From: Coraliomargaritaceae bacterium
Lineage (GTDB): Bacteria; Verrucomicrobiota; Verrucomicrobiia; Opitutales; Coraliomargaritaceae
Direction of reading: 5' to 3'
NCBI GenBank assembly: GCA_965656495.1
Contig: CBFHKU010000006.1
Span: 104,282 to 154,993 of the forward strand
DNA length: 50,712 nt
Each line of letters starts with the position of its first letter. Within the stretch, counting starts at the first letter, position 1. The notes beneath the pieces were generated by a model that did not search any database, was not told where the DNA came from, and saw only the letters and a program-made list of their open reading frames with translations. Below, in pieces: positions 10,028-50,454 of the stretch. The position numbers and the translations under genes are program-made.

Positions 10028-10681
10028 ATGCTCAAAGCAGAACGCGTCGCCCATATTCAAGAGACCCTCGAACGGCTCTACCCGGAGACCCCCGTACCGC
10101 TGGACCACCGCGACCCCTACACCCTCCTTGTCGCGGTCCTCCTCTCCGCCCAATGCACGGATGCCCGCGTCAACCAAATCACCCCACTGCTCTTTGCAAA
10201 GGCGGATAACCCACACGATATGGTCAAACTTTCTGTTGAGGACATCCACGCCATCATTCGGCCCTGCGGACTCGCCCCCATGAAGTCCAAGGGCATTGCA
10301 GGACTCTCGCGCATCCTCGTCGATCAATACGACGGCAAAGTACCGGCAGACATGGCGGCGCTGGAAGCCCTTCCCGCTGTGGGGCACAAGACCGCCTCGG
10401 TGGTCATGAGTCAGGCATTTGGGGTGCCCGCCTTTCCGGTCGATACCCATATTCATCGCCTCGCACAACGATGGGGCCTCAGTTCCGGAAAAAACGTCGT
10501 GCAGACCGAGAAGGATTTGAAGCGCCTCTTCCCCCGCGAGAAGTGGAACGCCCTGCATTTACAGATTATCTTCTACGGTCGCGAATATTGCACCGCCCGC
10601 GGTTGCGACGGCACCGTCTGCCCGCTCTGTCGCGAGCTTTACCCCCAGCGCAAAAAACCGGTCGTCACCCGAAAGGGCTAG
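10028..10681 (+). CDS. nth: Endonuclease III
   Basis: LLSAQCTDARVN, HhH motif LPAVGHKTASVV, VDTHIHR, C-terminal 4-Cys Fe-S motif. Confidence 0.96.
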   Translation: MLKAERVAHIQETLERLYPETPVPLDHRDPYTLLVAVLLSAQCTDARVNQITPLLFAKADNPHDMVKLSVEDIHAIIRPCGLAPMKSKGIAGLSRILVDQYDGKVPADMAALEALPAVGHKTASVVMSQAFGVPAFPVDTHIHRLAQRWGLSSGKNVVQTEKDLKRLFPREKWNALHLQIIFYGREYCTARGCDGTVCPLCRELYPQRKKPVVTRKG

Positions 10682-10789
10682 GGAAGAAACTTATGCAGGA
10701 ATCATTAAAACGGCTTTCTATTCAAGAGGCTAAATCCGCCTGAGAAGTCACTTTCAAAACGAATTCAGCAGCGGCAAGACGTTCCAGAA

Positions 10790-10850
10790 CCCCCTCTGAT
10801 CCTCCGCTCCTCCGCGTTAAAAAAAATAAACGCAGAGTAGCAAAGGAGCT
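10790..10850. repeat. Short REP-like imperfect palindrome
   Basis: ctccgcgtt-(A-rich)-aacgcagag inverted arms downstream of nth. Confidence 0.4.
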
Positions 10851-11005
10851 GATGGTAAGAATATTGATTATACAACTTTCAACCAACAACTTACAACGTC
10901 CATCCCCATAAAAAAAGCTCCCGTATACGTTTCCCTTAAAATAGCATCACTGGCAGGCATGCTATTGGTTGGCTTGTGAGTTACTTTTTAATTCCAAAGC
11001 TTTAG

Positions 11006-11188
11006 TCAGAGCGTGCGTTTACTCGTAGGAACTGGCCCACGACCTAATGCCTCGCCAACCGCACGCGCTTCCTCATCTGTTGCCGCCCTACGATTTTCAG
11101 AACTAGGCCCGCCGCTCTGGTAGCCATCTTTACCGAATAATGACTTCTTACGCTTGATGGGTGCCTTTTTCTTCGTGGAAGTTTTCAT
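11006..11188 (-). CDS. Small basic protein, islet family C (GYQSGGP...LGRGPxPT...KRTL)
   Basis: 60 aa; paralog at 13316-13501 and fused copy at the end of 12517-12861. Confidence 0.72.
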   Translation of the reverse strand: MKTSTKKKAPIKRKKSLFGKDGYQSGGPSSENRRAATDEEARAVGEALGRGPVPTSKRTL

Positions 11189-11193
11189 AAATT

Positions 11194-11355
11194 TTAGTCT
11201 CTTTTCGCCCGCTTTTTAGGTCTGCGCCGCCGTGATGTGGTGCTTAGAAATTTATCAACCTCTTGCCATTTGGGGTCGTTTGGATCAGCCAACCGTATAG
11301 AGTGAACGCCCAGTTCTTTGGCGGCCTCTTTCAATAGTTTATTTTTGCTGCTCAT
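11194..11355 (-). CDS. Small protein in antitoxin position, islet family B
   Basis: 53 aa from ATG 11355 overlapping the BrnT-like 3' end; LADPNDPxWQ and RRRRPKKRAK shared with paralogs. Confidence 0.68.
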   Translation of the reverse strand: MSSKNKLLKEAAKELGVHSIRLADPNDPKWQEVDKFLSTTSRRRRPKKRAKRD

Positions 11356-11638
11356 AGTAACTCCGTAATTTCCTATTATCCCCAACAATTATAATTCTAA
11401 TGCGTTTACCGCGCAAACAAAAAACTATATATAAAAGTTTTCCCGATTGGGATTTTCCAAAAACTGCAGTCCGGACTTCGCCGTCAGCAACCCGGGTTAC
11501 ATCAAATTTTATCTTATCCTTGTCCTTAAAAACTGAGATTGCCGCGCTGAAAGGTGGCCGTCCTAGTTGAATATTTCGGTCGGACTTCCACTTGCTCCAA
11601 ATAAACTTGCCGGAAATTACGTCTTTCTGCATATCCAT
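11339..11638 (-). CDS. BrnT (DUF497)-like toxin, copy A
   Basis: FxW..K...N......F..A..VF.D, GEVR...G, LLYIVF..RG..IRII pattern of the BrnT family; 99 aa from ATG 11638. Confidence 0.78.
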   Translation of the reverse strand: MDMQKDVISGKFIWSKWKSDRNIQLGRPPFSAAISVFKDKDKIKFDVTRVADGEVRTAVFGKSQSGKLLYIVFCLRGKRIRIIIVGDNRKLRSYYEQQK

Positions 11639-11641
11639 CGC

Positions 11642-11824
11642 TAAAAAGGACACTCGGTTCCGATGCCCAGTCGTTATTCCTTAAAAAAATACTTTTCCAA
11701 TCGTCCGTCCCGGTGCTGTTTAAATCACCCGGATCTGAAGTTTAGGAAGCTGTCTGGATTTTCAGCATTTATGCGGGTTACAGACCAAAAAGCCCGCTTG
11801 GGAATATCTCGGGAATAATTTTAA
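11642..11824. repeat. 183-bp inter-cassette repeat, copy R1
   Basis: taaaaaggacactcgg...cgggaataattttaa; ungapped alignment to R2/R3, diverged mainly in the right half. Confidence 0.93.
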
Positions 11825-12033
11825 CTCATAAGCCAATGAGAAATTGACTCAAAAAAGCTCCTCTTTTTTGCCCGCTTTTTAGGTCTGCGCCGCCGTAATG
11901 GTCTATTAAACTCTTTCCTGATCTTTTGAATAACCGGATCGCTGTCAGATGCTACTTCCCATTGAATGCCGCCGAGATTTTCAGCCTCTTCTTTCAGAAT
12001 CTTATTAATTTTAACTTTATCGGCTTTGTTCAT
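11821..12033 (-). CDS. Small protein in antitoxin position, islet family B
   Basis: 70 aa from ATG 12033 overlapping the BrnT-like copy B 3' end; MNKADK..INKIL.E.A and RRRRPKKRAK. Confidence 0.68.
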   Translation of the reverse strand: MNKADKVKINKILKEEAENLGGIQWEVASDSDPVIQKIRKEFNRPLRRRRPKKRAKKRSFFESISHWLMS

Positions 12034-12316
12034 GATAGATCTTTTTAAGCTTACTATTTTCAAAAACACTAATAATTCGCCTATACTGTTGCTGATAACA
12101 ATAGACTACAAACAAGCATTTACCGCAAGTGCTTTTCCCGAATACTGCGTAACGCTTTGCACCTTGCCCTTCTTTTGCTTCAACGTCGAAGGCTAGCTTG
12201 TCTTTAAAGACTGAGATTGCAGCGCTGAAAGGTGGCCGTCCTAGTTGAATATTTCGGTCGGACTTCCACTTGCTCCAAATAAACTTGCCGGAAATTACGT
12301 CTTTCTGCATATCCAT
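12017..12316 (-). CDS. BrnT (DUF497)-like toxin, copy B
   Basis: First 40 aa identical to copy A; KRYAVFGK...LFVVY...RRIIS pattern. Confidence 0.78.
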   Translation of the reverse strand: MDMQKDVISGKFIWSKWKSDRNIQLGRPPFSAAISVFKDKLAFDVEAKEGQGAKRYAVFGKSTCGKCLFVVYCYQQQYRRIISVFENSKLKKIYHEQSR

Positions 12317-12319
12317 CGC

Positions 12320-12502
12320 TAAAAAGGACACTCGGCCCCGTTGCCCAGTCGTTATTCCTTAAGAAAATACTTTTCCAATCGTCTGTCCCGGCACTGCTGA
12401 AATCACCCGGATCTGAAATTTAGGAAGCTTTGGAGCAATCGAACAATTAAGCGGATTAGATCAAGAAAAGCCCGCCTAGGAACAAATCGGGAATAATTTT
12501 AA
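12320..12502. repeat. 183-bp inter-cassette repeat, copy R2
   Basis: Nearly identical to R3 with only a few substitutions. Confidence 0.95.
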
Positions 12503-12516
12503 TTCCAAAGCTTTAG

Positions 12517-12861
12517 TTAGAGCGTGCGTTTTGTTGTCGGCTCTGGTCCCCGCCCGAGTGCATCACCAATTAACTTTGCCTCGGCATCCGTCAAAGGTCT
12601 TGAGTTGTCAAGATCAGGCCCGCCGCTCTGGTAGCCAGCTTTGCCCAGCACGGGCCTTTTTTGCCTAGTCGCTTTGATCGGACCAAAATCTTTAATTTGT
12701 TCGTCAACAGCATCCTTTAAATTTTCCCGTAATTCTTTGACGCTGGTTCCGGAGATATAGGCAACTTGCCTTTTATTGAATATCACACTTGCGCAAAAAT
12801 GCCCCGCTTCGGAATCATAAGTCGGGAATAATTTAACACCCTTATATTCTATTGCATTCAT
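12517..12861 (-). CDS. HicB-like antitoxin N-terminal domain fused to the family C peptide
   Basis: MNAIEYKG......YD.E.G.F...V.......ISGTSVKELRENLKDAVDE matches the HicB N-domain; overlaps hicA; tail GYQSGGP...LGRGPEPTTKRTL. Confidence 0.8.
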   Translation of the reverse strand: MNAIEYKGVKLFPTYDSEAGHFCASVIFNKRQVAYISGTSVKELRENLKDAVDEQIKDFGPIKATRQKRPVLGKAGYQSGGPDLDNSRPLTDAEAKLIGDALGRGPEPTTKRTL

Positions 12862-13114
12862 CGTGATTTAAAAACTCCTCTATTACTAATGATACAGTTG
12901 TTAAACAACCCTTGTCAACATCCGGACGGGGGTGCGGAGGGTGCAAACTAATTTTGAAATCCCCGTTTAGGAATTTGCATCCGTTTGCCGTGTTAATTTT
13001 TTTGAAACCTAAAGCTTTTAACAAAGCTTCTAAATCTCTGAATTTTAAATTACCTGGCTTAGGGTTGGCTCTTATTCGCGCTAAAGTACGCTGATGTTTT
13101 TTAGCTAGTTTCAT
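12842..13114 (-). CDS. HicA-like toxin
   Basis: KKHQRTLARI...P...NLKFRDLEALLKALG...HPPHPRPDVDKG matches the HicA family pattern; hicB-like gene directly downstream. Confidence 0.82.
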   Translation of the reverse strand: MKLAKKHQRTLARIRANPKPGNLKFRDLEALLKALGFKKINTANGCKFLNGDFKISLHPPHPRPDVDKGCLTTVSLVIEEFLNHDECNRI

Positions 13115-13118
13115 TTCA

Positions 13119-13301
13119 TAAAAAGGACACTCGGTCCCGATGCCCAGTCGTTATTCCTTAAGAAAATACTTTGCCAATCGTCCGTCCCGGTGCTGCTGAA
13201 ATCACCCGGATCTGAAATTTAGGAAGCTTTGGAGCAATCGAACAATTAAGCGGATTAGATCAAGAAAAGCCCGCCTAGGAACAAATCGGGAATAATTTTA
13301 A
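13119..13301. repeat. 183-bp inter-cassette repeat, copy R3
   Basis: Same ends and length as R1/R2. Confidence 0.95.
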
Positions 13302-13315
13302 TTCCAAAGCTTTAG

Positions 13316-13501
13316 TTAGAGCGTGCGTTTTTTTAAAGTAGGAACTGGCCCACGCCCCAAGGCCTTCCCTATCGCCTTCGCTTCTGCCTCTGTAACGGGT
13401 TGCAAATTATCCATATCAGGCCCGCCGCTCTGGTAGCCATCTTTGCCGAATAATGACTTCTTGCGCTTAATGGGTGCCTTTTTCTTTGTGGTAGATTTCA
13501 T
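13316..13501 (-). CDS. Small basic protein, islet family C
   Basis: 61 aa; shares KKKAPIKRKKSLFGKDGYQSGGP with 11006-11188; start overlaps the upstream stop. Confidence 0.72.
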   Translation of the reverse strand: MKSTTKKKAPIKRKKSLFGKDGYQSGGPDMDNLQPVTEAEAKAIGKALGRGPVPTLKKRTL

Positions 13502-13752
13502 ATATTTTTGCCTCTTTTTGCCCGCTTTTTAAGTCTGCTTCTCGGTGATGGAGTGCCTAGAATTTTATCCAACTTTTGCCATTGTGGATCGTTTGGATCA
13601 GCAAGCTTCATAGAGTCAAAGCCCATTTCCTTAGCGGCCTCCATCAAGGTTTTATTAATTCTATCTTTTTCAGCTTGGTTCATAGCAGGATTCTTTTCGT
13701 TTAATTTATCCGATATTTTATTAATCGCTTTGTCGGGTAATGTTTTAGACAT
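13498..13752 (-). CDS. Small protein, islet family B with no upstream toxin (alternative start 13683)
   Basis: MNQAEKDRINKTLMEAAKEMG...LADPNDPQWQKLDK...KKRAKR paralogous to the other two family B ORFs. Confidence 0.65.
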   Translation of the reverse strand: MSKTLPDKAINKISDKLNEKNPAMNQAEKDRINKTLMEAAKEMGFDSMKLADPNDPQWQKLDKILGTPSPRSRLKKRAKRGKNI

Positions 13753-13861
13753 GATTCGGATCGCAGGGGGAAAGTTGAGATATATGAATATAAAACGTTA
13801 AATGTAAAGTTTTTAATTTCTGTTCGTTACAGGAGCTAAAAGCGGCCTGTTGCCTGGAGTC

Positions 13862-14848
13862 TTACTTGCTCCACTCGAGCATACGCTTGATGGGGGCGTA
13901 GGCTTTTTGGCGGATGTCTTCGGGCATCTCGATGGCGGGGCCCTGATCGCGAAGGCAGTCGCGCAGTTTTTCGATGGTGTTCATCTTCATGTAGCGACAT
14001 TCGTTGCAGGCGCAGGTATCGGTGGGGCCCGCGATAAATGTTTTGTTGGGGATTTCGCTCTGGAGGCGATGAATCATTCCGGTCTCAGTAATCACAATAA
14101 ATTCACGGGCGTCGTCGTCACGGCAATAGTGCACCATTTTCTCGGTGCTGCATACGACGTCGGCATTGTCGCGGACGGTCTCGACGCATTCCGGGTGGGC
14201 GACCACTTTGGCGTCGGGAAATTTGAGTTTGAGTCGTTCGATGGCCTGTTGGGTAAAGAGGACGTGGGCGTAACAGGACCCCGGCCAGAGTTGCATGCGG
14301 CGGCCGGTTTCTTTGCTGACCCATTGGCCGAGGTTTTGGTCGGGGACAAAGAGGATCTCGCGGTCGGCGGGGATGCGCTCCACGATTTTGGTGGCGTTGC
14401 CGCTGGTGCAGATGACATCGCTCAGGGCTTTGACGGCGGCGGAGCAATTGATGTATGCAACGACGTAGGTGTCGGGGTGGGCCTCTTTGTAGGCCGCGAG
14501 TTTTTCGGCGGGGCAGGAATCGGAGAGGGAGCAACCTGCGGCGAGGTCGGGCAGATAAACGGGGGTCTGGGGATTGATGATTTTGGCGGTCTCTGCCATG
14601 AAGTGGACGCCGCAAAAAACAATGGCATCGCAGTCGGCTGCTTCAGCGTGGTAGGCGAGGCCGAGGGAATCGCCCACGTAATCGGCGACCCGCTGGATCG
14701 CTTCGATTTGATAATTGTGGGCGAGGATGACGGCGTTGCGTTCCTTTTTCAGGGCGAGGATTTCTTCCTGAATCGCGGAGAGGGGTGCTTCGTCTCCGGT
14801 GCGGGGAGCGAAAACCATCGGTTCGTAGTTAAGCGGAGCGGTAGCCAT
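13862..14848 (-). CDS. nadA: Quinolinate synthase
   Basis: ILAHNYQ, GDSL, FCGVHFMAETAK, AGCSL, YINCS and AHPEC motifs; ATG 14848 preferred start. Confidence 0.97.
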   Translation of the reverse strand: MATAPLNYEPMVFAPRTGDEAPLSAIQEEILALKKERNAVILAHNYQIEAIQRVADYVGDSLGLAYHAEAADCDAIVFCGVHFMAETAKIINPQTPVYLPDLAAGCSLSDSCPAEKLAAYKEAHPDTYVVAYINCSAAVKALSDVICTSGNATKIVERIPADREILFVPDQNLGQWVSKETGRRMQLWPGSCYAHVLFTQQAIERLKLKFPDAKVVAHPECVETVRDNADVVCSTEKMVHYCRDDDAREFIVITETGMIHRLQSEIPNKTFIAGPTDTCACNECRYMKMNTIEKLRDCLRDQGPAIEMPEDIRQKAYAPIKRMLEWSK

Positions 14849-14926
14849 AGGGGAGCGTCGTTTAGAAAACAGAACGTTCAGACCCCAGGAGGGGAATGTC
14901 AAGCGGAGGCTGGAGTTGGGCGGTTG

Positions 14927-48992: not shown

Positions 48993-49082
<90 letters not shown>

Positions 49083-49106
49083 TTTTAAAGAAAACATAAA
49101 CCACTG

Positions 49107-49140
49107 AAAAAGAGAAACTTATAAAAGGTTTCTCTTTTTT
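49107..49140 (+). terminator. Bidirectional-type terminator after tRNA-Ser
   Basis: aaaaagagaaac...gtttctctttttt inverted repeat. Confidence 0.75.
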
Positions 49141-49179
49141 GTTTTCAACATCCTATCCCTTGTATTATCCTTTTGGATC

Positions 49180-50454
49180 ATGAGGGAGTTGAAGAAACAC
49201 ACCATCTCCACCGTTGTTAACAAGAACGGGAAAACGTCCTTTCGTATCTACCTGGGTCTTTTCGACGGAAAAAGACGTTACAAACAGTTCATCGACTTCA
49301 AAAATGCAGAATCGTTTTGTTCCAAACTTAACCGAGATCTCGAACTGAAGAAAATCGGATATGACAAACAGTTCGGAAAAATGTTGGATCAGAAGAATGA
49401 GATTCTCTTCTGTCTCGAAAAGATCGAAGACCTTGGTGTCTCATTGACCGAGGTAGTTCAATTTTACGAGAAATTTGGTGAATGTTCAAAGGGGGATATC
49501 TCGATCGAGGATTCGATCAAGTTATTCAGGAAAGAGAAGGAGAAGACTGGAAAGAGTAAGATTTACTTAGATAAATCCATACACAGTTACCTCTCCCCAT
49601 TTTCAACCCATGTTGGTCGTGAAACTTTGGTGTCTGGAATCAATGAAAAGATGATCGAGGACTACGTTTACAAGACTAGGAAAAATGTTTCCCCCAGAAC
49701 AAAGGTTAATCTGATCAATCAACTATCGATCCTCTTCAATTTTTTGATCAAGAAGGGTCACCTGAAATTCAATCCGACACAAAATATTGAGAGACCAAAA
49801 GTTCTGAAAAAGAAACCGACCATCATTAAAGTCGGTGATCTTCGTAAACTATTGGATCGTGGTCTGAAAGATGGGAAATTCGAAGAAGTGACAATCTTAG
49901 TCCTCCAGTGTTTCTGTGGTGTTCGATCTTATGAATCTGGTCGAATGGTGTGGGGAGATATTGATTGGAATCGGAAAGTAGTTCAGGTAAGGTCTGAGGT
50001 ATCAAAGATGTCGAGTCATCGAATCTGTAAGATTCCTCCCAATTGTTTTGAATTCCTACGAATCGTGAGGGAAAATCTCTTTATTCGAGTCAAAGACAAG
50101 GATCGGAGGATCATTAAGAATTTCGAACACCGTATGAGGAAGTTTCGAGGAGGTTTAGGAGTCGATCTTCCAACTAATATTCTCCGACATAGTTTCGGAT
50201 CCTATCACTTCTCTCGATGGGGAGATTCAAACAAGACCAGGAATCAGATGGGACATCACGAAGGAGAATTCACTTTCCTCAATCATTATCGGGACCTAGT
50301 TCACAAGGACATGTCAGTAAAGTATTTTGACATCTATCCCTTCAATACCACCGAGAAAACATTCCGGTATGATCCTGAGAAACACATCGTGACTGGTCCT
50401 CGTGATCGAGTTACCCAAACTGGGCCAGAGCTTTCGTTAGTCTGGATGGGTTAA
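49180..50454 (+). CDS. Tyrosine recombinase/integrase of a tRNA-Ser-integrated element (last 16 aa read from the inserted IS end)
   Basis: GVRSYE (R), NILRHSFGSYH, QMGH and NHYR (Y) motifs; NP....RPK linker; immediately downstream of the tRNA. Confidence 0.93.
   Translation: MRELKKHTISTVVNKNGKTSFRIYLGLFDGKRRYKQFIDFKNAESFCSKLNRDLELKKIGYDKQFGKMLDQKNEILFCLEKIEDLGVSLTEVVQFYEKFGECSKGDISIEDSIKLFRKEKEKTGKSKIYLDKSIHSYLSPFSTHVGRETLVSGINEKMIEDYVYKTRKNVSPRTKVNLINQLSILFNFLIKKGHLKFNPTQNIERPKVLKKKPTIIKVGDLRKLLDRGLKDGKFEEVTILVLQCFCGVRSYESGRMVWGDIDWNRKVVQVRSEVSKMSSHRICKIPPNCFEFLRIVRENLFIRVKDKDRRIIKNFEHRMRKFRGGLGVDLPTNILRHSFGSYHFSRWGDSNKTRNQMGHHEGEFTFLNHYRDLVHKDMSVKYFDIYPFNTTEKTFRYDPEKHIVTGPRDRVTQTGPELSLVWMG

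Follow-up and report, generated by a model that had tools for sequence, protein, structure and literature searches.

An islet of toxin-antitoxin modules with a shared 183-nt unit between nth and nadA in a marine Opitutales bacterium

Between the convergent housekeeping genes nth and nadA of a marine Opitutales bacterium lies an islet of ~3.2 kb (10682-13861 of the window, that is, of the whole 50,712-nt stretch of DNA analysed), which holds four toxin-antitoxin (TA) modules separated by a 183-nt unit, R. Comparison with congeners shows that the islet was inserted between nth and nadA in one Opitutales sub-lineage, and alignment of its parts shows a common frame, R - X - C - t, in which X is a canonical BrnT gene (in relatives), a pair of genes encoding a divergent BrnT-fold toxin (BrnTx) and its partner B, or HicA together with a HicB-like domain fused to C. 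We lean towards the view that R is an intergenic promoter/leader and spacer shared by the TA operons, and that R and C together act as a homology scaffold on which modules are duplicated, deleted, and swapped by ordinary recombination.

The islet and its modules

The GC content of the islet is 42.8%, against 54.5% for the whole window, and no recombinase gene lies within it. Its features, in window coordinates, are as follows.

10682..10985, no strand: nth-proximal non-coding islet end, conserved in congener G097 (82.7% match)
10986..11005, minus: t, conserved ~20 nt past the C stop (35-nt repeat family, three copies, 97-100%)
11006..11188, minus: C1, small basic protein of 60 aa, family C (ORF list and family alignment)
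11194..11388, minus: B1, family B; ORF listed with 64 aa, likely start an internal Met (MSSKNK...)
11339..11638, minus: BrnTx-1, divergent BrnT-fold toxin (PF04365, 6.8e-11, 42.8 bits)
11642..11824, minus: R1, 183-nt unit (ungapped alignment of the three units)
11821..12069, minus: B2, family B; likely start Met at 12033, no C after it
12017..12316, minus: BrnTx-2 (PF04365, 5.6e-11, 43.0 bits)
12320..12502, minus: R2, 183-nt unit (same alignment)
12517..12861, minus: HicB-like domain (residues ~1-58) continuing in frame as a C domain (~62-114) (alignment and AF2 model)
12842..13114, minus: HicA toxin, 90 aa (PF07927, 2.7e-6, 27.8 bits)
13119..13301, minus: R3, 183-nt unit (same alignment)
13316..13501, minus: C3, 61 aa, family C (ORF list and family alignment)
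13498..13752, minus: B3 ORF, 84 aa, a chimera with no toxin gene ahead
13753..13861, minus: upstream region also found ahead of a 331-aa gene in congeners G097 and G095; promoter-like site 13816-13787

R1 thus precedes BrnTx-1, R2 precedes BrnTx-2, and R3 precedes hicA. An earlier sequence-only reading of this DNA had described an AT-rich islet between convergent nth and nadA with no integrase or transposase inside, the same gene order, and three ungapped 183-nt repeats, all of which the analysis confirmed. Its notion of a fixed-length repeat holds for the three ungapped copies, but the repeated tracts overrun 183 nt on different sides. Among its module labels, BrnT-like (twice) and HicA are supported by Pfam, whereas "HicB" has no HMM match and the B ORF of the first module is chimeric.

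Both BrnT-like ORFs of the window exceed the PF04365 gathering score of 34.5, and the canonical BrnT of G097 reaches 54.3 bits. The first ~45 codons of BrnTx-2 are identical to those of BrnTx-1 and the remainder has diverged, with 68% identity overall; the start of BrnTx-1 is placed at ATG 11638, and its ORF listing begins at GTG 11653. In the four canonical BrnT proteins compared here, K19-H20-G21, H44-S45, and E48 (G097 numbering) are invariant; in the alignment, four BrnTx paralogues carry L/M-G-R at the K-H-G position and lack H-S..E. BrnTx-B pairs occur at four places in the genome and, because two of them stand alone on contig C1, without R, gene order identifies B as the partner of the divergent BrnTx. 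B2 has an aberrant tail that terminates at a TAA inside the first TTAAAA of R1. In the B3 ORF, remnants of a 331-aa dCTP-deaminase-like gene (13752-13684) are joined to a B gene whose true start is probably the ATG at 13683; 13862-13718 matches the upstream region and first codons of the congener's 331-aa gene, and 13722-13694 matches an internal piece.

HicA is barely over the PF07927 cut-off (27.8 versus 27 bits), and PF07927 is also present in a relative with 65% identity. Inside hicA lies a promoter-like site for hicB::C (12918-12889, 11/12 matches). The HicB domain has a derived RNase H-like fold. The HicB-like part gave no HMM match; it is so labelled because it comes after hicA and because a low-confidence AF2 model (pLDDT 62.6) gives residues 1-58 four strands and a helix (pLDDT 67-78). 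Its last 53 residues are the C domain, with no RHH or Xre-HTH (no Pfam match); the model leaves most of this C part disordered, apart from a short strand and a single helix.

Gene neighbourhood in relatives pairs C with canonical BrnT: the BrnT-C pair is present in G097, G095, and a metagenome contig (L019), and a BrnT gene with an overlapping, diverged C-like ORF is present in another genus (G012). The predicted BrnT+C complex scored 0.38 versus 0.02 for the best of three controls, a weak pass. Of 157 solved complexes, 116 reached the mark, and of 215 mismatched pairs, 2 did so; at scores of 0.60 or below, however, only 18 of the 157 solved complexes reached it, against both passing mismatches. 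Contact agreement among the runs was at least 84%, with a partner pLDDT of at least 54. The predicted model of C has no recognisable DNA-binding fold, and C has no PDB or Pfam relative; both B and C are without a match in Pfam, NCBIfam, or PADLOC models, and the BrnA profile (PF14384) matched neither at E<=1. One protein (P0007) joins a C domain to a degenerate tyrosine-recombinase-like domain (PF00589, E 0.025, below the cut-off), and a homologue of the latter is encoded in the bacterium's own genome (C4:137391-138068, E 1.2e-45).

Variants of the islet among related genomes

In three of six congeners (G096, G098, and G100), the nth-nadA gap is only 6-7 nt, which identifies the islet as an insertion. 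Other versions were found in two congeners and in L019: the islet measures 3181 nt here, 2010 nt in G097, and 755 nt in G095, and window 11192-10682 matches G097 at 82.7% over 513 nt. A ~45-nt genome-wide repeat has one copy at about 10791-10823, with contig depth in excess there and 46 matches in the bacterium's own genome.

In both G097 and L019, canonical BrnT is preceded by R or its 3′ half. In G097 it follows the 3′ half (94% over 88 nt), which itself comes after a gene of unrelated function, encoding a 331-aa dCTP-deaminase-like membrane protein (PF22769, 27.3 bits); in L019 it comes after a half R and also after a full R. G095 has canonical BrnT after a 21-nt R remnant, along with a frameshifted B2-like remnant. 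The block formed by part of C, t, and R2 (12645-12320) is 96.7% identical to L019 858-1187, and the next gene is canonical BrnT in L019 and BrnTx in the window. An extra joint, 11865->11202, which yields a B1/B2 hybrid, was found in contigs from three studies (X10, X16, and X8); this joint and G097-like joints co-occur in contigs with the window arrangement.

Properties of the 183-nt unit

R2 and R3 are 97% identical (E 1.2e-83), and R2 and R1 82% (E 2.5e-46). In the 5′ 95 nt, R2 equals R3 (100%) and both are 74% identical to R1; the 3′ 88 nt are 90-94% identical across all three pairs (93% for R2 versus R3) and remain at 90-95% in every copy and strain, including those without the 5′ half. 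Homology between R1 and R2 continues into the BrnT-like gene, covering its first ~125 nt (300 nt, 88%; 11519-11818 versus 12197-12496). Between R2 and R3 it continues on the other side, through the 20 nt that follow C and into the last ~30 nt of that gene (12497-12531 versus 13296-13330, 97%). At its right edge, R breaks off sharply ahead of three different toxins; X starts 2-8 nt past the last R base and ends within 4 nt of the C start or, in frame, within C. The sequence upstream of the half unit in G097 and L019 does not match the 5′ half of R, and simple tandem duplication of that arrangement therefore fails to explain its origin.

R is non-coding, with stops in every frame in the window and a frame that varies among copies. 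Folded as DNA, R2 reaches -11.7 kcal/mol, and 195 of 200 shuffles fold at least as well (z +1.89); folded as RNA, R shows no excess stability over shuffles (z +1.48), and compensatory change occurs in 0 of 24 predicted pairs. Rfam gave no match (a single hit, with E 0.83, at 11822-11899), and no inverted ends were seen in R. A consensus scan for sigma-70-like promoters returned four sites in the region against 5.4 expected, none within any R, and the best candidate read by hand, TTGGAA-16-AATAAC, is weak. A terminator-like hairpin with a 5-bp stem (GGGAC...GTCC plus a T-run) ends R3 at 13138-13124 and is retained in all copies, with changes preserving G-U pairing. TTAAAA is shared by two independent junctions, namely the array end (…GGAATTAAAA then unrelated DNA) and the B2/R1 junction; at the array end, t finishes in TTAAAA, where homology to R stops. 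The bacterium's 2,062,385-base genome holds no further copy of R (the other three of six matches are 15-17 nt, E>1), the sole long match among 101 family genomes, beyond the bacterium's own, is the 88 nt in G097, and viral contigs gave 0 matches.

A proposed recombination-based explanation and its alternatives

Under the explanation that we favour, the 3′ 88 nt of R would provide a promoter/operator and a short leader, with the 5-bp hairpin and U-run just before the start codon, and the 5′ 95 nt may be a spacer or the 3′ region of the preceding operon. C may be a common repressor and/or BrnT neutraliser, placed where HicB proteins have their DNA-binding domain, which is often a fused RHH or Xre-HTH (PMC2701414, available part). 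In that case, regulation would cross between modules, and [BrnTx-B-C] would have three components, like the known TA systems in which the repressor is separate (PMC3337138, available part). Co-regulation of the modules via the putative shared control unit R is plausible. Differences among strains would arise from unequal crossing-over and gene conversion between copies of R and C, with microhomology-mediated deletion adding to them. High identity overruns R on different sides in each pair, and the 331-aa gene remnants 13862-13718 and 13722-13694 overlap by 5 nt, a microhomology at a deletion junction; together, the staggered tracts and this microhomology point to homologous and illegitimate recombination. 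Replacement of X precisely at both ends, at least twice, is not easily achieved by homologous recombination alone, and needs rare illegitimate events plus selection, or donor DNA already carrying R and C.

Other roles for R would make it an RNA element. The whole array might be a single transcript from the promoter-like site at 13816-13787, with R as an intercistronic element, not a promoter, whose hairpin and U-run attenuate or process the RNA and so keep toxin levels below those of the upstream antitoxin genes. The absence of a consensus promoter from R, the retained hairpin and T-run, and the placement of every gene on one strand with short gaps agree with this. However, the fold of R is no stabler than shuffles and shows no compensatory change, its stem is only 5 bp, the promoter-like site inside hicA makes some internal starts plausible, and the half unit in G097 follows the functionally unrelated 331-aa gene; we consider a single transcript unlikely. 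Quite unlikely, in our judgement, is a small regulatory RNA encoded by R, cis or trans (a type I/III-like antitoxin or antisense RNA) and common to the modules: R is indeed non-coding, and its 3′ half is more conserved than the neighbouring coding DNA (90-95% versus ~70% in C), but Rfam, folding energy, and covariation lend it nothing, R lacks the internal tandem repeats of type III antitoxins, and each toxin already has a protein partner.

A very unlikely alternative is that R is the site of an undescribed site-specific cassette system, in which a recombinase supplied in trans cuts the TTAAAA that borders R on its 5′ side and mobilises R-module units. The array end and the B2/R1 junction both fall at TTAAAA, the right edge of R is sharp before three toxins, and the C domain is fused in P0007 to a recombinase-like domain with a homologue in the genome. 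Yet the coding strand of the 3181-nt islet has 11 copies of TTAAAA, which makes the coincidence weak; R is confined to one locus, and identity tracts overrun it on different sides. attC sites form imperfect hairpins in the single-stranded bottom strand and carry the core consensus R'' RYYYAAC and R' GTTRRRY at their ends; no such pair 40-200 nt apart occurs at any R, the sole pair in the islet being in hicA/hicB coding DNA (12831-12906), and R has neither hairpin nor inverted ends. None of five matches to the integron integrase profile TIGR02249 in the genome reaches the cut-off (best 80.8 versus 265 bits), and the integrase-like proteins, judged by eye from their sequences, appear to have no arginine at the usual first catalytic position. 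Of four PF00589 genes in the genome, the closest lies at window 49180-50454; this nearest tyrosine recombinase is 35 kb from the islet, beside a tRNA. A more novel reading treats R and C as a portable landing frame, in which a TA pair dropped between them would be expressed from R and repressed by C, while C would bring a tyrosine-recombinase-like protein, as in P0007, to R, giving a minimal integrase-in-trans cassette system without attC hairpins; we regard this, too, as very unlikely. Least credible is an assembly artefact, with metagenome strain variants collapsed or chained. The assembly is of metagenome type (31 contigs), several strain variants of the locus share the same samples, and the array is nowhere covered end to end by one contig or read. 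Against mis-assembly, which the sequence-only reading had named as a possible undoing of its proposal, Logan contigs from two studies give shared pieces about twice the depth of unique ones (X1, 93-95 versus 42-50; X5, 97-100 versus 37-44), in agreement with the assembled copy numbers; moreover, each unique module occurs at 99-100% identity in runs of several studies, and L019 independently shows C - t - full R - next toxin.

That reading had also suggested a possible cassette system, distinct from attC integrons, with a shared non-coding unit that captures, shuffles, or co-regulates TA modules; this is partly supported. One non-coding unit does precede unrelated toxins (BrnTx twice and HicA here; canonical BrnT in G097, G095, and L019), and module content and order do vary among strains at one site, as the versions of 3181, 2010, and 755 nt, L019, and the joint 11865->11202 attest; such variation was the outcome that the sequence-only reading had named in favour of its proposal. 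No sign of a capture system distinct from integrons emerged, however, with R at one locus of one sub-lineage and devoid of fold or attC core.

Relation to known systems

CALINs are clusters of attC sites without an integron integrase (PMC4889954, available part), the integrase being needed for a complete integron but not for a CALIN. As far as the available part of that source describes integron arrays and CALINs, the islet resembles them in its tandem small one-strand modules, often of TA type, its recurring non-coding unit, its strain-variable content, and the lack of a nearby integrase. Unlike theirs, R has no hairpin and no R''/R' cores, is 183 nt long with nearly identical copies, and sits 5′ of each module up to the start codon; identity tracts overrun it, and the genome has no IntI. 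The integron reading was rejected on hairpin potential, attC core, IntI, and confinement to one locus. The locus is a lineage-restricted curiosity rather than a new kind of integron, and the evidence so far points to no new class of mobile element.

The small adjacent or overlapping toxin and partner genes, in pairs that recur in independent contexts, place the modules with type II TA systems. They share with type II "mix and match" (PMC3337138, available part) small overlapping genes and toxin families joined to unrelated partner families, and with three-component systems a possible separate repressor gene, C, after antitoxin B. In contrast to the cases in the available part of that source, swapping is seen here at nucleotide resolution in one locus, with a shared upstream unit and downstream gene; B and C, moreover, fall in no antitoxin family described, by profile and sequence searches. 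As in HicAB (PMC2701414, available part), hicA lies upstream of a partner with a predicted small sheet-and-helix N-terminal domain and a C-terminal extension where the DNA-binding domain usually sits, but the extension is the C domain common to BrnT modules, not RHH or Xre-HTH. As in BrnT/BrnA (PF04365 with PF14384), a BrnT-fold toxin gene is followed by a small overlapping partner gene; here, however, canonical BrnT pairs with C and BrnTx with B. In CDI and Rhs loci, downstream orphan toxin-immunity modules are exchanged by homologous recombination over conserved stretches. The islet likewise has variable toxin/protector pairs between conserved recombining blocks, although theirs are secreted polymorphic toxins with a coding block; in the islet, intergenic R and the small partner gene C take that role. 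Like defence/TA hotspots between core genes, the islet occupies a fixed site that is empty in some species and holds other defence-like cargo in others, but it is tiny (0.75-3.2 kb), has no mobility gene, and repeats one frame.

Implications

As a rule, TA "mix and match" is deduced by comparing distant systems, whereas here the exchange is preserved at nucleotide resolution: in strains found together in seawater, three toxin cargos sit between one upstream unit and one downstream partner gene, and a natural HicB::C chimera has formed at one junction. The locus is therefore a small, tractable test system, which may address how new combinations of toxin, antitoxin, and regulator originate, whether tandem TA modules are cross-regulated via a shared operator, and what roles the orphan partner families B and C play with BrnT-fold toxins.

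Organization of the islet

The AT-rich islet (42.8% GC vs 54.5% in the window) lies between the convergent genes nth and nadA, and its coordinates and gene order, as proposed in the sequence-only reading, were borne out by the ORF listing and by alignment of its three non-coding units, R1, R2, and R3. Its features, with B and C denoting two families of small partner genes, are given below in minus-strand order between the two flanks.

Features of the islet
13862-14902, minus strand: nadA, islet flank
minus strand: B and C (first module)
13119-13301, minus strand: R3
minus strand: hicA and a 114-aa ORF ending in a C domain (HicB::C, a HicB-like domain fused to C)
12320-12502, minus strand: R2
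minus strand: BrnT-like gene and B
11642-11824, minus strand: R1
minus strand: BrnT-like gene, B, and C
10028-10681, plus strand: nth, islet flank

The proposed toxin identities were backed by Pfam for both BrnT-like genes (43.0 and 42.8 bits; cut-off 34.5) and only narrowly for HicA (27.8 bits; cut-off 27), while B, C, and the HicB-like part matched no Pfam, NCBIfam, or PADLOC model, and a PADLOC run on nine islet proteins matched none of them. The first module lacks a toxin gene; its C stands as described, but the ORF listed as its B is a chimera, in which 13862-13718 corresponds to the upstream region and first codons of a congener's 331-aa gene and 13722-13694 to an internal 29-nt piece of the same gene, the two pieces overlapping by 5 nt. 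Separately, 10791-10823 (within 10760-10860) holds one copy of a ~45-nt palindrome-containing repeat that has 46 matches in the genome, often in tandem clusters (e.g., C8:27489-28056 and C3:108522-109470), and here has a contig depth 8-10 times that of its neighbours.

The repeated unit and its frame

The three units have the same length, 183 nt, and align without gaps, with 97% identity between R2 and R3 (E = 1.2e-83) and 82% between R2 and R1 (E = 2.5e-46). To this extent the description of a fixed 183-nt repeat holds, but the repeated tracts exceed 183 nt on different sides: R1/R2 homology extends over 300 nt at 88%, covering the initial ~125 nt of the BrnT-like gene, and R2/R3 homology takes in, on the other side, the ~20-nt stretch downstream of C plus ~30 nt at the C 3′ end (97%), after which it falls to ~70%. 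The 5′ 95 nt are identical in R2 and R3, whose 3′ 88 nt show 93% identity; R1 matches the other copies at 74% in the 5′ half and 90-94% in the 3′ half. This 3′ half is kept at 90-95% across every copy and strain, even in those lacking the 5′ half.

All versions of the islet fit one frame, R - X - C - t, where X is a variable toxin-bearing segment and t is a conserved stretch of ~20 nt after the C stop codon. X begins 2-8 nt past the last base of R (…CCTTTTTA), which is true of the divergent BrnT-like toxin BrnTx, of HicA, and of canonical BrnT, and it ends within ~4 nt of the C ATG or in frame inside C, as in HicB::C. A block comprising part of C, t, and R2 is 96.7% identical to a block of L019, a metagenome contig with its own islet version; the next gene is BrnTx here and canonical BrnT in L019. 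The module R2-BrnTx-B2 has lost C and t, and its B2 has an aberrant tail, read through to a stop (TAA) within R1's first TTAAAA.

Searches for R outside the islet locus gave only short matches or none. In the own genome (2,062,385 bases), the BLASTN comparison suggested earlier revealed no further copy, matches beyond R1-R3 being no longer than 15-17 nt; a search of family genomes gave short 25-34-nt matches in G091 and G022, and the R pattern had 0 matches in viral contigs. Matches of 24 nt in G003 and in G012, a member of another genus, were rejected as chance, as they fall inside a conserved sufD-like coding region. R is not a MITE, because no copy occurs outside the locus, and it is not coding, because of its stops and a frame that differs between copies.

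Variation at the nth/nadA site

By the names in source records, the organism falls in the Opitutales/Opitutia, and nadA is present in all seven genomes of its genus. The stop codons of nth and nadA lie 6-7 nt apart in three congeners (G096, G098, and G100), G099 has a different neighbour, and the two congeners nearest in nadA (97% protein identity), G097 and G095, carry islets of 2010 and 755 nt, respectively, at the same site, compared with 3181 nt in the window. From these sequences we conclude that the islet is an insertion gained in one sub-lineage and remodelled since.

Layouts in two congeners
G097: 331-aa gene; 3′ 88 nt of R (94%); canonical BrnT (54.3 bits); C; ~20-nt t
G095: start of the 331-aa gene; frameshifted B2-like remnant; last ~21 nt of R; canonical BrnT; C

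The contig L019 has the G097 layout and, beyond it, a complete R carrying a 5-nt insertion and then another canonical BrnT. In G095, the end of the C gene is fused to nth-proximal DNA, and P0003, a protein fragment from another MAG, is a HicB::C with the same fused end. The 331-aa protein of G097 is dCTP-deaminase-like (PF22769, 27.3 bits; TIGR02274, 1.9e-9) with a membrane tail. Its gene (L007 1636-2631), at the same hotspot, encodes an N-terminal dCTP-deaminase-like domain and a C-terminal membrane segment, and is defence-like cargo of which the window retains just two short remnants (13684-13752). Elsewhere in G097, a BrnTx-type ORF (L058, C46:11662-11784) has its first 41 residues 85% identical to the islet copies and the rest unmatched, and may mark another mosaic breakpoint inside a toxin gene.

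Logan contigs from eight sequencing runs in six studies (P1-P6) also contain the window's arrangement, its unique pieces being 99-100% identical and its shared pieces at ~2x depth in runs X1 and X5. That the array is a mis-assembly is hardly credible. The contigs also carry G097-like joints and a third arrangement, in which a B1-like body is joined to the B2 tail (11865->11202; X10, X16, and X8, from three studies), along with low-depth joints at 11237->13634 in X17 (depth 5.1, side 22) and 12673->13479 in X20 (depth 4.6). As these are 31-mer contigs and R is longer than the word, excised circles look the same in them as the tandem form. Taken together, the four layouts (window, G097, L019, and G095) and the contig joints show that R precedes three toxin types, BrnTx, HicA, and canonical BrnT, as the claim of one unit before unrelated toxins had it, and that module content differs among co-occurring strains.

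Partner families B and C

Contig C1 of the own genome carries two further BrnT-like and B pairs, stand-alone, with overlapping genes and without R. These pairs (271957-272407 and 294314-294764; L055 and L054) show 59% protein identity to the islet copies, and each is flanked by unrelated housekeeping-type genes; in their upstream regions, similarity to R is limited to the final ~15 nt ahead of the ATG. Since BrnTx-B pairs thus occur on their own elsewhere in the genome, B is, judged by gene context, the cognate partner of the divergent BrnT subfamily BrnTx, a subfamily without the K-H-G and H-S..E residues found unchanged in all four canonical BrnT sequences that were compared. No relative of B was found in 400 other genomes of the phylum, where the same query also overlooked the G095 B2-like pseudogene, or in a 5.8-billion-protein index, and the ESM Atlas gave no usable match.

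In G097, G095, and L019, C comes after canonical BrnT, and the two genes overlap. The sole C relative outside the genus among the genomes searched is a diverged 55-aa C-like ORF of G012, which overlaps a canonical BrnT (L016 1209-1647) and has phage-like neighbours. C is very rare, occurring in four of 401 genomes of the order and in five of 1.84 billion representatives; in one of these five, P0007, C precedes a degenerate domain resembling an integrase (PF00589, E = 0.025, under the cut-off). A C profile detected at least one locus each in metagenome and genome collections and two 26-residue matches in viral contigs (E = 1e-4 and 3e-4); in a phylum search with alignment A4, dominated by the integrase-like part of P0007, the C part was matched only by G000 (the own genome), G095, and G097 among the matches listed. 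In the ESM Atlas, C reached only scores of 0.80, a level that shuffled proteins attain one third of the time, and a PDB sequence search gave nothing meaningful for C or HicB::C.

Complex prediction lent weak support to a BrnT-C pairing, with a score of 0.38 (best of three controls, 0.02). Of 157 solved complexes, 116 attained the mark, as did 2 of 215 mismatched pairs, and passing scores of 0.60 or below included only 18 of the 157 together with both passing mismatches. The predicted runs share at least 84% of contacts, with a partner pLDDT of at least 54. In the model of HicB::C, the C part is largely disordered and has a single strand and a single helix; according to PMC2701414, HicB proteins often bear an RHH or Xre-HTH domain, at the position that C takes in the islet's HicB-like protein.

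At another locus of the own genome (L032, C4:135891-139568), three peptide motifs recur in the ORF translations with a ~61-nt period, a pattern that we read as the signature of a CRISPR-like array. An adjacent 196-aa ORF, degenerate and integrase-like, is a homologue of the P0007 C-terminal portion (E = 1.2e-45).

Integron and other readings

The evidence speaks against the islet being an integron. According to PMC4889954, the defining feature of an attC site is a folded palindrome carrying R and L boxes, and a CALIN requires at least two of them; by contrast, the islet's R folds no better than shuffles (195 of 200 DNA shuffles and 188 of 200 RNA shuffles are at least as stable as R), and no RYYYAAC/GTTRRRY pair was found at any R. 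The position of R, 5′ of each module and reaching its start codon, also counts against an integron, and the own genome has no integron integrase (best 80.8 bits; cut-off 265). The nearest tyrosine recombinase (49180-50454) adjoins a tRNA-Ser 35 kb away. There, at 48993-50454, tRNA-Ser (GGA) is directly followed by a 424-aa recombinase of Xer/phage-integrase type, scoring far below the integron-integrase cut-off, and the pair is possibly the border of an integrated element that runs off the window. An undescribed site-specific system, possibly with integrase-like relatives of P0007, is very improbable: R is confined to the islet locus across the own genome, family genomes, and viral contigs, and two junctions falling at one TTAAAA carry little weight, as the islet coding strand has 11 such hexamers. 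Of the cassette-system reading, the varied modules behind a common unit remain, but a capture system of its own is not supported, R being confined to a single locus and no integron integrase being present.

That R is a small RNA gene is quite improbable; Rfam at E <= 1 returned a single chance match (BSnc120, E = 0.83), and RNAalifold on six copies of the 3′ half found compensatory change in 0 of 24 pairs, a result compatible with R having a structure or none. That the whole array is transcribed as one polycistronic RNA, in which R would be an intercistronic attenuator, is unlikely. Inside hicA, upstream of hicB::C, lies the region's best sigma-70-like match (TTGACA-18-TATCAT, matching 11 of 12 positions; 12918-12889, minus strand), which suggests a separate antitoxin promoter.

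Proposed mechanism and significance

In the reading we favour, the conserved 3′ half of R would be a common promoter/operator and leader, and the 5′ half a spacer, although a consensus scan detected no promoter within R. C is the sole component common to the BrnT, BrnTx-B-C, and HicA modules, and may act as a common repressor and/or as a BrnT neutraliser. In such a role it would leave the modules cross-regulated and make BrnTx-B-C a three-component system, the kind of toxin-antitoxin system noted in PMC3337138. Near-identical copies of R and C, staggered tracts, and microhomology junctions indicate how the array changes size and order, likely via unequal crossing-over, gene conversion, and slippage-type deletion, and new cargo would first be placed between R and C by rare illegitimate events or come from donors that already have the frame.

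The original observation is thus confirmed, and its interpretation is supported in part. Toxin-antitoxin hotspots, "mix and match" exchange, and repeat-mediated recombination are already known; what sets this islet apart is its pair of orphan partner families and its naturally occurring HicB::C chimera.
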